From the NCBI RefSeq assembly GCF_003790525.1, contig NZ_CP033635.1: a DNA stretch of 64,000 nt; one strand, written 5' to 3'. Below, in pieces: positions 12,790 through 32,659 of the stretch. Each line of letters opens with the position of its first letter. The first letter of the stretch is position 1. This DNA comes from Escherichia coli. GTDB taxonomy: Bacteria > Pseudomonadota > Gammaproteobacteria > Enterobacterales > Enterobacteriaceae. The notes beneath the pieces were generated by a model. It worked only from the letters and a program-made list of their open reading frames with translations, did not search any database and was not told the origin of the DNA. Position numbers and translations under genes: made by a program.

Positions 12790-12905
12790 GCAAACGCAAA
12801 ACTGCCTGATGCGCTATGCTTATCAGGCCTACGAGGTTTCTGCAATGTATTGAATTTGCATGTTTTTGTAGGCCGGATAAGGCGTTCACGCCGCATCCGG
12901 CATGA
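12790..12905. repeat. REP element cluster
   Basis: gcctgatgcgctatgcttatcaggcctac ... taggccggataaggcgttcacgccgcatccggca REP units between yqjG and yqjF. Confidence 0.55.
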
Positions 12906-29338: not shown

Positions 29339-29661
29339 TTTTCGATCCTTTCATTGTGTTGTCGCACATCCCTGGTGCGTTCTGTCGACGCATCTTTCAG
29401 GATGTAACAAAGTGTTTGCAAGGTCGAGTATAAGGAAAGTTACAGCTTCGGGAAGCGAAAAATGCTGGATTTTAAAGAGAGGTCATATTTTGCAACTTAA
29501 TGGTTACATTTGTTTGACATAAAAATAAAGCCCAACGTGCAGCTTCCAGACTGATGACAACGTCAAAAAAGTACTCGGTCAGTCCCCTCGCCCCTTTTGG
29601 GGAGAGGGAGAAAACGGTGCTCATGTTGATGACAGGGTACACGGCGTGGGCAGATTAAAAA

Positions 29662-30627
29662 TCATCCAACCCGCTGCTTATCATGCCGATAATTCACCCA
29701 GGCGTTGATAATAAACGTCATCACCAGAATGCCAAACACCACGCCCAGCGAGACGGCGATCGGAATATGGTAGAAGTCGACAATCAGCATCTTGATACCG
29801 ATAAACACCAGAATCACCGCCAGACCATATTTGAGCATCGAGAAACGCTCTGCCACACCTGCCAGCAGGAAATACATCGCACGCAGGCCGAGGATCGCAA
29901 ACAGGTTTGAGGTCAGCACAATAAACGGATCGGTGGTCACGGCGAAGATAGCCGGAATACTATCCACGGCGAAAATCACGTCGCTCAACTCCACCAGAAT
30001 CAGCACCAGCATCAGCGGCGTGGCATACAACAAACCATTCTTACGCACAAAGAAATGCTCGTTGTCGATGGTGTCGGTCATGCGTAAATGACCGCGTAGC
30101 CAGCGCACCAGCGGCTTGTCGCCAATGCCTGATTCATCTTCATGGGCGAGCGCCATCTTCACGCCGGTAAACAGCAGGAAGGCACCGAAGATATACAAGA
30201 TCCAGTCGAACTGTGAAATCAGCCAGCTACCAGTGAAGATCATGATGGTACGCAGAACAATCGCCCCGAGCACGCCATACACCAGCACGCGACGTTGTAA
30301 TGCCGCCGGAACAGAGAAATAGCTGAACAACATCAGCCAGACAAAGACGTTATCGACCGCCAGCGATTTCTCAATCAGATAACCGGTGAGGAAGGCCAGT
30401 GCCTGTGGATCGGCAACGGCGCGACCTTCGGTTTGCACCAGATACCACCAGAAAGCGGCGTTAAACAGTAACGACAGCGTCACCCAGACCAGCGACCAGG
30501 CCGCAGCCTGTTTCATGGTCATGGCATGTGCCCCACGACGCCCCTGCAACAACAGGTCGATAGCCAGCATAATGGTGACAACAACAGCGAATCCGCCCCA
30601 TAGCAACGGCGTGCCGACAGTATTCAT
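29662..30627 (-). CDS. alx: TerC-family membrane protein (putative Mn exporter)
   Basis: 321-aa multi-TM ORF; synteny with K-12 alx (ygjT). Confidence 0.88.
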
Positions 30628-30639
30628 AGAAGTTCCTTA

Positions 30640-30890
30640 CACATAAAAAAACGGCCAACGTCGGAAGACGTCAGCCGCTGCTTTTTATGCATAGACCTCG
30701 CCTTCCGGCAAGGTCTCACTTACAACAAAAAAGGAATACGTCTGCGTATTCCTTTCGGGTTGCCCGGTGACCGGATGTGGTTTTTCACACATCGTAATGA
30801 CGATCGACCGGCAATGAAGTTACTCCCCTTTGCAGGTAACAAAGTATGACAGACCATTCAGTCAGTCAATGGTCTGTTACATACCTTTTA
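30640..30890 (-). ncRNA. sraF: alx 5' leader (SraF / yybP-ykoY Mn-riboswitch-type element), approximate bounds
   Basis: About 280-bp untranslated gap upstream of alx. By established knowledge the alx leader is a structured pH/Mn-responsive RNA; I did not verify the fold by eye. Confidence 0.4.
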
Positions 30891-30910
30891 CACTGTTTTA
30901 CTTTGGCAAT

Positions 30911-31897
30911 TTATAGTTTTACGCTATCTGCCGGAAAAATCACCCTAGTCTGGCGGCGGATCTCGGTCAGCAGTTTGGCGGTGATGCGACTGACCGCCAG
31001 CCCTGGATGATCCACCAGATGCTCATCCACCAGGGTAGCGAACAGCTCTGCTTCGTAGAGCATGGTATTAATATGCTGCGGTTGGGTGAGATCCTGCATC
31101 TGGCTGCCACGCGGAACAAAGCAAACTTTCTGGCATTCAGACAGTTTTTCAATCACCAGCGATCCCGCTTCGCCCTGAATCTCGCTTGCCAGGACAGAAT
31201 CGCTCACTTTTGAGTGCTGCAACGTAACGCTGAAATCACCGTAATCCATCACCACCACGCCGTGGGCATCCACACCGCTTGCCAGCAAACTGGCGGTTGC
31301 CTGCACGCTTTTCGGTTCACCGAATAATGCCACCGCCGACGCCAGGCAGTAAAAGCCGATATCCATAATTGAACCGTTAGAGAATGCCGGATTAAAGGTG
31401 TTGGGATTCTCACCATCCAGGTAACGTTGATACCGCGAGGAATACTGGCAATAGTTGAAAAAGACTTTACGCAGTTTGCCGACTTTCGGCAGCGCCTGGC
31501 GCAACAGATGAAAGTTCGGCAGGCTGGCGGTTTTAAATGCCTCAAACAGCACCACCTGATTTTCCCGCGCACAGGCAATGGCGGCATCCACTTCCGCCAG
31601 ATTCGACGCCAGTGGCTTCTCGCAAATCACATGAATTTTGTGACTAAGGAAAAGTTGTGTCTGGGAAAAGTGCAGGGAATTCGGGCTGGCAATATACACC
31701 GCGTCAATGGCATCGCTTTCTGCCATCGCTTCCAGCGACGTAAACAGATGCTCGACAGAAAAATCATTGGCGAAGTGCTGGGCCTGTTCAAGACTGCGGG
31801 AATAAACGGCGGTTAACTTGTATTTACCGCTCTCATGGGCGGCCTCGACGAACTGGCGAGTGATCCAGTTCGTACCAATCACAGCGAAACGTATCAT
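30911..31897 (-). CDS. ygjR: Gfo/Idh/MocA-family oxidoreductase
   Basis: ORF 30911..31915; start at MIRFAVIGTNWITRQFVEAAHESGK (Rossmann N-terminus). Confidence 0.8.
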   Translation of the reverse strand: MIRFAVIGTNWITRQFVEAAHESGKYKLTAVYSRSLEQAQHFANDFSVEHLFTSLEAMAESDAIDAVYIASPNSLHFSQTQLFLSHKIHVICEKPLASNLAEVDAAIACARENQVVLFEAFKTASLPNFHLLRQALPKVGKLRKVFFNYCQYSSRYQRYLDGENPNTFNPAFSNGSIMDIGFYCLASAVALFGEPKSVQATASLLASGVDAHGVVVMDYGDFSVTLQHSKVSDSVLASEIQGEAGSLVIEKLSECQKVCFVPRGSQMQDLTQPQHINTMLYEAELFATLVDEHLVDHPGLAVSRITAKLLTEIRRQTRVIFPADSVKL

Positions 31898-31975
31898 AAC
31901 GCGTGGATACTCCATAAAGGGATTCTCTCGTCACTGTAGCACGCCTTTTTTATCTTCGACGTGCGCAGATACGCA

Positions 31976-32659
31976 TTATTCTTTTGCCGGACAGCCATGC
32001 TCACTAAACGGCCCAATCATAACCAACGGCCCGAGATATTTCGGCTGGCGATGGAGGATTTTCGCATCAATCACCGCGCTGACTCTGGCAAGTTTTTCCC
32101 GCAGTTGAGTATATAAACCGTGTTTCATATTCAGGTCTGGCGCGTTAAAACCGATAGCATCGATACCATACTGTTTTGCCAGCCAGATGGCGCGTTGGTT
32201 ATGAAATTCTTGCGAGATAATGGTGATATGGTTTTCACTAAACACCTTGTTGGCACGCACCACCGAATCAAGCGTTGAGAATCCGGCATAGTCGCAGAAG
32301 ATCACTTTTGCCGGTACGCCTTTAGCGATCAAGGCTTGCTGCATTCCTGACGCTTCATCGTAATTTTTACGTCCATTATCGCCGCTCACCAATAGCCATT
32401 TCACTTTTCCGGCGTGGTACAACTCTGCGGCGCTATCAATACGTCGGGTAAAGTAGCGATTACCCGGCCTGGCTCCCAGCAATAAACCCACGTTCCGCGC
32501 CGGAACGGCGTTGACATCGCTCCAGGTCAGTTGTTGGCTGGCGTTTACCATAACGCGATCGGCAATAAAAATGGTCGCTCCTGCTATAAGCAACAATAAA
32601 CAGCCAATCTTAAGAGTCCGGCGAGAAAAACAAATACGGAGAAGAAGGCGGGGCTGCAT
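31976..32659 (-). CDS. ygjQ: DUF218 (YdcF-like) protein
   Basis: 227-aa ORF with N-terminal TM anchor; synteny. Confidence 0.78.

Follow-up and report, generated by a model that had tools for sequence, protein, structure and literature searches.

The alx leader RNA of Escherichia coli, an atypical three-way-junction Mn2+ riboswitch outside the reach of Rfam RF00080, and comparative evidence on its two conformers

What does the untranslated DNA between ygjR and alx encode in Escherichia coli, and does the failure of an RNA family model to recognize it argue against a riboswitch? Both points arose from a 64-kb stretch of E. coli DNA (64,000 nt, referred to as the window), in which the two genes lie on the minus strand. 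The ygjR stop codon TAA occupies 30913-30911, as confirmed by the list of open reading frames and a coordinate check, and alx is the open reading frame 30627..29662 with its ATG start at 30627, which leaves an untranslated gap of 283 nt at 30628-30910. We conclude, with a probability of roughly 95%, that this gap carries the alx leader RNA of E. coli (PRE; SraF when terminated at hairpin P6), a Mn2+ riboswitch with an atypical three-way-junction (3WJ) aptamer.

This leader is already known and thoroughly characterized (Nechooshtan 2009; Dambach 2015; Stephen et al. NAR 2025, PMC12153347; Palmer et al. 2026 preprint, PMC12934788; PDB 9JGM), and to find it here is ordinary annotation. What is added concerns the covariation between the loops of hairpins P5 and P6 (loop C/loop D), the restriction of a terminator-like P4 to a minority of leaders, the weak conservation of the pairing between the 5' strand and the ribosome binding site (RBS), and the tolerance of P4 to insertions. 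A practical by-product is the blind spot of RF00080 for the enterobacterial alx-type subclass. The present analysis yielded the anatomy and its conservation, the covariation that supports both conformers, the terminators and the gene family; Mn2+ binding, the effect of pH, polymerase pausing and the reporter responses are taken from the literature.

Identity of the locus

Several E. coli chromosomes matched the 701 nt around the gap at 100% identity, and 5419 of 5426 complete genomes did so at 95% or more. The protein encoded downstream belongs to the TerC family (PF03741, 181.8 bits), and the K-12 record labels the alx product 'Mn(2+) exporter Alx'. No RNA feature was annotated in the gap, either in the K-12 record or in the one PGAP genome inspected. 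A preliminary description of this DNA, made from the letters alone, had placed the gap between alx and ygjR, and both its coordinates and its gene calls were borne out by the open reading frames, the Pfam match and the sequence identity. It had also taken the whole gap, about 280 nt, as leader. Here the outcome was divided: an RNA of 207 nt occupies 30834-30628, and the remaining 76 nt (30835-30910) hold a promoter and an upstream hairpin.

Detection by covariance models

The same description had assigned the leader to the yybP-ykoY class and proposed an Rfam scan with RF00080 as the check. In 30628..30910 this model gave no match. A cmscan of the 3 kb at 29500-32500 against Rfam 15 returned nothing at E ≤ 1, RF00080 was absent from 30600-30950 (351 nt) even at E ≤ 10, and in 20 diverse orthologous alx leaders it was found in none at E ≤ 1. 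As a positive control, the E. coli K-12 mntP leader matched RF00080 with 41.6 bits and E = 7.6e-10 (962-1058 of the examined K-12 locus), which is itself below the gathering threshold of 45 bits. Since the validated mntP riboswitch also falls under the threshold and 20 of 20 alx orthologs are missed, the missing match is no valid refutation, and we judge it a false negative.

As displayed in the match to mntP, the consensus structure of RF00080 leaves the 5' strand of L1 unpaired and has no 3' strand of P1; its pairing comes from P2, from P4 and from a P3 that carries the consensus L3. Alx-type leaders have neither the P2 helix nor the consensus L3 that the model expects. The absent Rfam match reflects the covariance model and not the alx sequence, and the same limits of RF00080 probably explain why riboswitch annotation is missing at both alx and mntP in RefSeq records. 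A rule of 'Rfam match or refuted' would have thrown out a genuine, crystallographically characterized riboswitch.

The enterobacterial alx lineage being invisible to RF00080, phylogenetic surveys seeded from Rfam can be skewed. The preprint of Palmer et al. (PMC12934788, section 9), working from a filtered RF00080 set, describes the alx L3 (UCAUUAC) as 'restricted to the Bacillales', and Stephen et al. (PMC12153347) describe alx-like switches as exclusive to Enterobacterales. In our alignment, UCAUUAC combined with a 3WJ was present in 59 of 73 Enterobacterales leaders, in contrast to the statement in the preprint; the Rfam blind spot is the probable cause of this disagreement.

Two further Rfam matches are recorded as side observations. 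The sole match above its gathering threshold in the whole window was the ES036 (CssrF) sRNA at 12825-12865 on the minus strand, a borderline case with 38.4 bits against 37.6 (E = 3.9e-4). Just downstream of the alx ortholog of Yersinia artesiana (L082, 2416-2539, plus strand) a sub-threshold match to Vibrio RNA AS5 (RF02818) was obtained, with 35.4 bits against 96 and E = 7.7e-4.

Anatomy of the leader

Published residue numbers were converted by n = 30835 minus the window coordinate, so that +1 is 30834 and the A of the AUG, +208, is 30627. With this start, the published residues A11, A37, A132, C135 and A137 each land on the correct base, and the U-tracts at +103-108 and +184-190 coincide with the products of in-vitro termination published at about 108 and at about 190 nt. 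The leader itself, the 5' untranslated region from +1 to +207 (30628..30834), is supported by this residue fit and by the stability of its fold; it lies, with all features given below, on the minus strand.

The Mn2+ aptamer domain, a 3WJ variant of the yybP-ykoY type, extends from +1 to +128 (30707..30834), as judged from the covariation, the published structure and a covariance model of our own built from alx-type aptamers only (CM R1). It is closed by P1.1, whose 5' strand GCAAAGG (+2 to +8, 30827..30833), with A4 bulged, is invariant and 100% paired with +122-127 (30713-30708) in 72 leaders. In the minimum free energy (MFE) fold this 5' strand also pairs with the RBS spacer, as in the OFF state. 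The metal-binding loop L1 follows, formed by GGAGUA at +9 to +14 (30821..30826), which includes A11 and is invariant in 73 of 73 sequences, and by GAGA at +118-121 (30717-30714). P1.2 consists of the invariant ACUU at +15 to +18 (30817..30820) and its partner AAGU at +114-117 (30721-30718). The three 3' strands are contiguous from +114 to +127 (30708..30721), AAGU of P1.2, GAGA of L1 and the switch strand CCUUGC of P1.1, and do not vary in any of the 73 sequences. Helix P2 is replaced by a capping loop L2, CAUUG, at +19 to +23 (30812..30816), for which a C19-G23 pair with a 3-nt loop has been published; the 5-nt spacing is kept in the orthologs.

The P3 hairpin (30764..30811) is made up of P3.1 (+24-34/+62-71), L3, P3.2 (+42-47/+56-61) and the terminal loop UGAAAAAC, and is supported by covariation. 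L3, the metal-binding loop UCAUUAC at +35 to +41 (30794..30800), equals the published alx-like consensus. Extension of P3.1 by three base pairs (U21-U22-G23 with C73-A74-A75) was considered and rejected, as it clashes with the covarying base helix of P4 and with the published L2 capping loop. P4, or hairpin B, covers +72-113 (30722..30763); the terminator scan, the covariation of its base helix and the published site B agree on it, and its U-tract at 30732-30727 is the intrinsic termination site B at about 108 nt.

The expression platform starts within the aptamer. P5 (hairpin C), the OFF-state hairpin with loop GGAA, runs from +119 to +142 (30693..30716) in the MFE fold, as in the published P5. 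P6 (hairpin D) extends from +157 to +184 (30651..30678) with loop UUCC, is supported by the terminator scan, covariation and the published site D, and is followed by a U7 tract at 30651-30645, the intrinsic terminator D at about 190 nt that sets the 3' end of SraF. In the alternative ON-state helix (stem C/D, or 'P5/P6'; 30662..30707), positions +128-136 pair with +165-173 and +138-141 with +159-162, leaving A137 bulged, as indicated by covariation. The Shine-Dalgarno (SD) sequence AAGGA lies at +197-201 (30638-30634) and is followed by the spacer ACUUCU and the AUG at 30627-30625, the whole region being 30625..30638. Around the SD and AUG, the MFE fold pairs nt 202-207 with nt 8-13 and nt 197-199 with nt 16-18.

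The 76 nt upstream of the leader

We infer an alx promoter at 30841..30869 from conservation in orthologs and from the spacing to +1 = 30834. Its -35 box TTGACT (30869-30864) and -10 box TACTTT (30846-30841) are separated by a 17-nt spacer; TTGAC is conserved in at least 90% of the orthologs, in which the -10 box reads TAyTTT. In a consensus promoter scan the alx promoter fell below threshold and nothing was reported. The same DNA holds a strong hairpin directly 3' of the ygjR stop codon (30841..30887; -20.8 kcal/mol, z = -5.4) with the core stem ACAGACCATT/AATGGTCTGT at 30877-30868/30858-30849 and a U-rich tail. Its loop contains the -35 box and its tail the -10 box. In 53 of 74 orthologs TTGAC is enclosed by a stem of 6 bp or more, and compensatory changes in it can be seen by eye. 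The hairpin is probably the terminator of ygjR, overlapping the alx promoter.

Fold stability, conservation and covariation

The 251-nt leader sequence folded with an MFE of -102.7 kcal/mol, compared to -67.6 ± 4.8 kcal/mol for 200 dinucleotide shuffles, none of which was as good (z = -7.32). The terminator scan found two intrinsic-terminator-like sites in the leader against 0.5 expected. A scan of species-representative genomes for Alx yielded 80 loci, which range from Escherichia to Serratia, Yersinia, Pantoea and Erwinia, and about 74 of them carry the motifs GGGGAGTA, GTCAnnnAC and GAGACC in one common order. The resulting alignment comprises 73 Enterobacterales leaders, 72 of them distinct.

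Both L1 strands (GGGGAGUA and GAGACC), the core of L3 and the P1 strands were invariant throughout the alignment. Within L3, U35, C36, A37, A40 and C41 never changed, and the loop read UCAUUAC in 59 sequences, UCAUGAC in 7, UCACUAC in 4 and UCAAUAC in 3. P1.1, P1.2 and the 5' strand of P5 are invariant and therefore provide no evidence from covariation. The evidence from compensatory changes comes instead from the remaining helices: 98.9% of cells were paired in P3.1, with compensatory changes at 6 of 10 pairs; P3.2 was paired in 91.7% of cells (5 of 6 pairs compensatory); the base helix of P4 (72-76/109-113) showed such changes at 3 of 5 pairs, and P6, paired in 95.6% of cells, at 3 of 12. 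P5 reached 91.7% pairing, with its top six pairs at 94% or more, and had no compensatory pairs, since the strand on its 5' side belongs to the aptamer and is invariant. The claim of the preliminary description that the leader is structured thus holds, on the z-score of the fold and on compensatory changes in 72 distinct orthologous leaders.

P4 is variable. Its length ranges from 14 to 65 nt across the orthologs, and it is terminator-like in 21 of 73 leaders. After P6, U185 is invariant and U184 and U186-188 are conserved in at least 90% of the alignment; a regular-expression count of these U-tracts (35 of 73) was set aside, as the pattern under-counts compared to the alignment.

A strong intrinsic terminator that ends the leader about 190 nt from +1, together with the first detection of SraF as a discrete small RNA (published), could also be taken to mean that SraF is a trans-acting small RNA in its own right, located upstream of alx by chance. 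We consider this extremely unlikely. The element sits in cis in every case, immediately 5' of an alx ortholog; what is conserved in it are the elements of the aptamer and of the platform that overlap the alx RBS; and the small RNA is accounted for as the P6-terminated product of the OFF state. A cis-acting leader of alx is the reading retained here.

The ON-state helix (+128-141 with +159-173) was paired in 97.0% of cells, and 3 of its 13 pairs changed on both sides, among them G130-C171, replaced by A-U in 11 sequences, and A132-U169, replaced by U-A in 2. In the aptamer, 94.5% of cells were paired overall, compared to 33-44% for slid-partner controls; across all helix counts these controls gave 30-44%, and none of 500 shuffles reached the observed values. 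At the level of sequence comparison, this covariation between the loops of P5 and P6 is direct support for the alternative ON conformer. The switch strand of P1.1 also has two partners: +122-128 can pair with +2-8 (P1.1) or with +133-139 (P5), and either pairing is possible in at least 92% of cells.

Relation to mntP and to the yybP-ykoY family

CM R1 scored the aptamer of the window at 118.5 bits and that of K-12 at 118.7 bits. In a 67-kb search it gave no match to mntP at E ≤ 10. Applied to the mntP leader alone (181 nt), it returned 6.0 bits (E = 0.078), and the ends of this best match are those of the mntP aptamer. What the model aligned was the P1.1-L1-P1.2 clamp only, on both strands (GGGGAGUA...GAGACC, with GGCGAGACC on the 3' side in mntP). 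Alx and mntP are thus mutually undetectable by covariance models, RF00080 missing alx and the alx model scoring mntP at these 6.0 bits. The aptamer interiors of the two leaders have diverged too far for profile detection, and the L1 clamp and the topology of L3 are kept. Homology of alx to the canonical members rests on motif, topology and published structures, and not on a significant profile match.

The two leaders have in common the L1 sequences GGGGAGUA and GAGACC, the flanking P1.1 and P1.2, a 7-nt one-sided L3, a P1.1 switch strand and the control of a Mn exporter. The GGAGUA hexamer is identical in both, and the following base is A15 in alx and G in mntP. Unlike alx, mntP (apo structure PDB 4Y1M) has a P2 helix, a four-way junction (4WJ), the L3 sequence ACAUACU and a short P4, and it has no internal terminators and no pH response.

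Measured against the hallmarks of the family, the E. coli alx leader carries GGGGAGUA at +7-14 and GAGA(CC) at +118-123 between P1.1 and P1.2, and, between the covarying P3.1 and P3.2, a one-sided loop of 7 nt whose sequence UCAUUAC varies on the ACAUACU of the family consensus. The 3' half of its P1.1 switch helix is shared with the expression platform, and a Mn2+-homeostasis gene (TerC) lies downstream. Two hallmarks are missing. The RF00080 score stays below the gathering threshold, a weak test that mntP fails as well, and in place of a four-way junction there are 5 nt (CAUUG) between P1.2 and P3.1, and P2 is absent from all 73 leaders. All members crystallized before alx have the 4WJ; we treat it as typical for the yybP-ykoY family and not as defining it.

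In the literature alx is counted as a member of the family, and its published descriptions show the same departures, that is an absent P2 (3WJ), a termination site in P4 and a different L3 (PMC12153347). In the Mn-bound crystal structure (PDB 9JGM) the metal core is conserved, A37 contacts the Mn2+ and the L2 capping loop replaces P2. The locus and sequence are the same as those of the published E. coli alx riboswitch/PRE/SraF, and helices P1.1 to P6, L2, L3, sites B and D and the OFF and ON models map onto it one to one. Its identity as PRE/SraF follows from the 100% sequence identity, the named residues and the termination sites. The reading as a yybP-ykoY-type, pH-responsive leader (SraF) is in this way upheld by the mapped residues, the L1 and L3 hallmarks, the TerC gene and the literature, although RF00080, the check proposed for it, gave no match.

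The OFF and ON states

The published inactive model has the RBS paired to P1.1/L1, and a P5/P6 model has been put forward for switching. In this model, placed on the present anatomy, the OFF state prevails at low Mn2+ and neutral pH, where the 3' strand of L1/P1.1 (+119-128) is captured by the downstream sequence to form hairpin P5. P6 and its U-tract then act as an intrinsic terminator about 17 nt upstream of the AUG, and in E. coli the 5' strand of P1.1/L1/P1.2, set free by the capture, pairs with the SD-AUG region. The switch turns ON when Mn2+ binds between L1 and L3 and contacts A37, which docks the two helical legs and locks P1.1. The 3' strand and loop of P5 then pair with the 5' strand and loop of P6 (+128-141 with +159-173), a pairing that removes the terminator and leaves the RBS single-stranded. 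Alkaline pH raises cytoplasmic Mn2+ and sensitizes the aptamer by way of L2, the capping loop, and the alx-type L3. Metal and pH signals are in this way integrated in the control of the TerC-family Mn2+ exporter Alx. Through the loop C/loop D covariation, the comparative data lend modest support to this published two-state model.

The secondary structure of the ON state was predicted to be less stable than that of the OFF state by 6-26 kcal/mol in all 73 leaders. This fits a decision between the states that would be taken co-transcriptionally, trapped by the ligand and assisted by pausing of RNA polymerase. In the original PRE model, pausing has the larger part: the active fold is chosen through pauses at two sites that depend on pH (published), and the RNA would be purely pH-responsive and independent of a ligand. 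We hold this to be very unlikely. Pausing alone leaves the invariant metal-binding core of L1 and L3 in 73 sequences unexplained, and in the literature alx must bind Mn to respond to pH, a response for which L2 and the alx-type L3 are needed as well, the A37U mutation abolishes the response, and a crystal structure with bound Mn is available. A ligand-free RNA is already largely refuted by the published data on A37U and on swaps of L3, and a Mn2+-binding riboswitch in which pausing assists remains our preferred reading.

The two outputs of the switch, antitermination at P6 and release of the RBS, are not equally well conserved. All 72 leaders have kept the P6 stem, the U-tract and the antiterminator helix between loop C and loop D, with covariation. 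The pairing of the 5' strand with the RBS was retained in 70-75% of cells without compensatory change, as counted column by column with an SD-AUG spacer that aligns poorly. Calculated species by species, the duplex energy of nt 1-20 with the RBS had a median z of -0.19 and beat the shuffles in only about 12% of species. This points to a possible scheme in which, across Enterobacterales, the alx-type switch acts first of all by antitermination at P6, as its conserved output, and RBS occlusion is a later, lineage-specific layer that is strong in Escherichia and Serratia. The response of transcriptional reporters in E. coli, 5-fold to pH and 2.7-fold to Mn, would be in line with it. The translational reporters, however, rose 68-fold with pH and 21-fold with Mn, far above the transcriptional response. 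A constrained partition-function calculation of RBS accessibility in the ON compared to the OFF state was without power, as it gave a difference of 0.03 in the E. coli positive control. The RBS of other species may moreover be occluded by other partners or controlled kinetically, and for the orthologs the scheme is drawn from aligned sequences. We regard antitermination as the primary output as a doubtful, if reasonable, alternative, and raise the ancestral output, termination or translation, as a testable question.

Insertions and losses in orthologous leaders

Several orthologous leaders carry natural insertions. In Escherichia albertii (L005, about 870-1100) the P4 sequence GAAAGGAATACGCAGAyGTrTTCCTTT is duplicated, and the two copies flank about 170 nt of inserted DNA that contains REP/BIME-like palindromes and interrupts the aptamer within P4; CM R1 still scored 66 bits on the 5' part. 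ERIC/IRU-like repeats were found inside P4 in Siccibacter colletis (L014) and 'Enterobacter pulveris' (L034), the latter apparently with two copies. Within this set of orthologs, REP and ERIC insertions are tolerated in P4. In Phytobacter diazotrophicus (L024) and Erwinia persicina (L046), ERIC/IRU-like repeats are located after or within P6, between the P6 region and the RBS, and the aptamers are intact with 94.8 and 100 bits (CM R1), respectively.

Two leaders look like natural losses of the riboswitch. In Atlantibacter sp. RC6 (L025, 1091-1115) an internal deletion joins the 5' strand of L1 to the 3' half of P5; P3 and P4 are gone and a remnant of 20.6 bits is left, whereas the leader of a relative (L028) is intact. 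Rouxiella aceris (L077) lacks the aptamer, has another gene upstream, and has kept only a P6-like terminator and the RBS. Finally, Phytobacter massiliensis (L016) and Enterobacteriaceae UBA3516 (L054) have an insertion of about 40-65 nt in the terminal loop of P3.2, at about columns 50-110 of the alignment, and no long P4. The tips of P3.2 and of P4 therefore both tolerate expansion.
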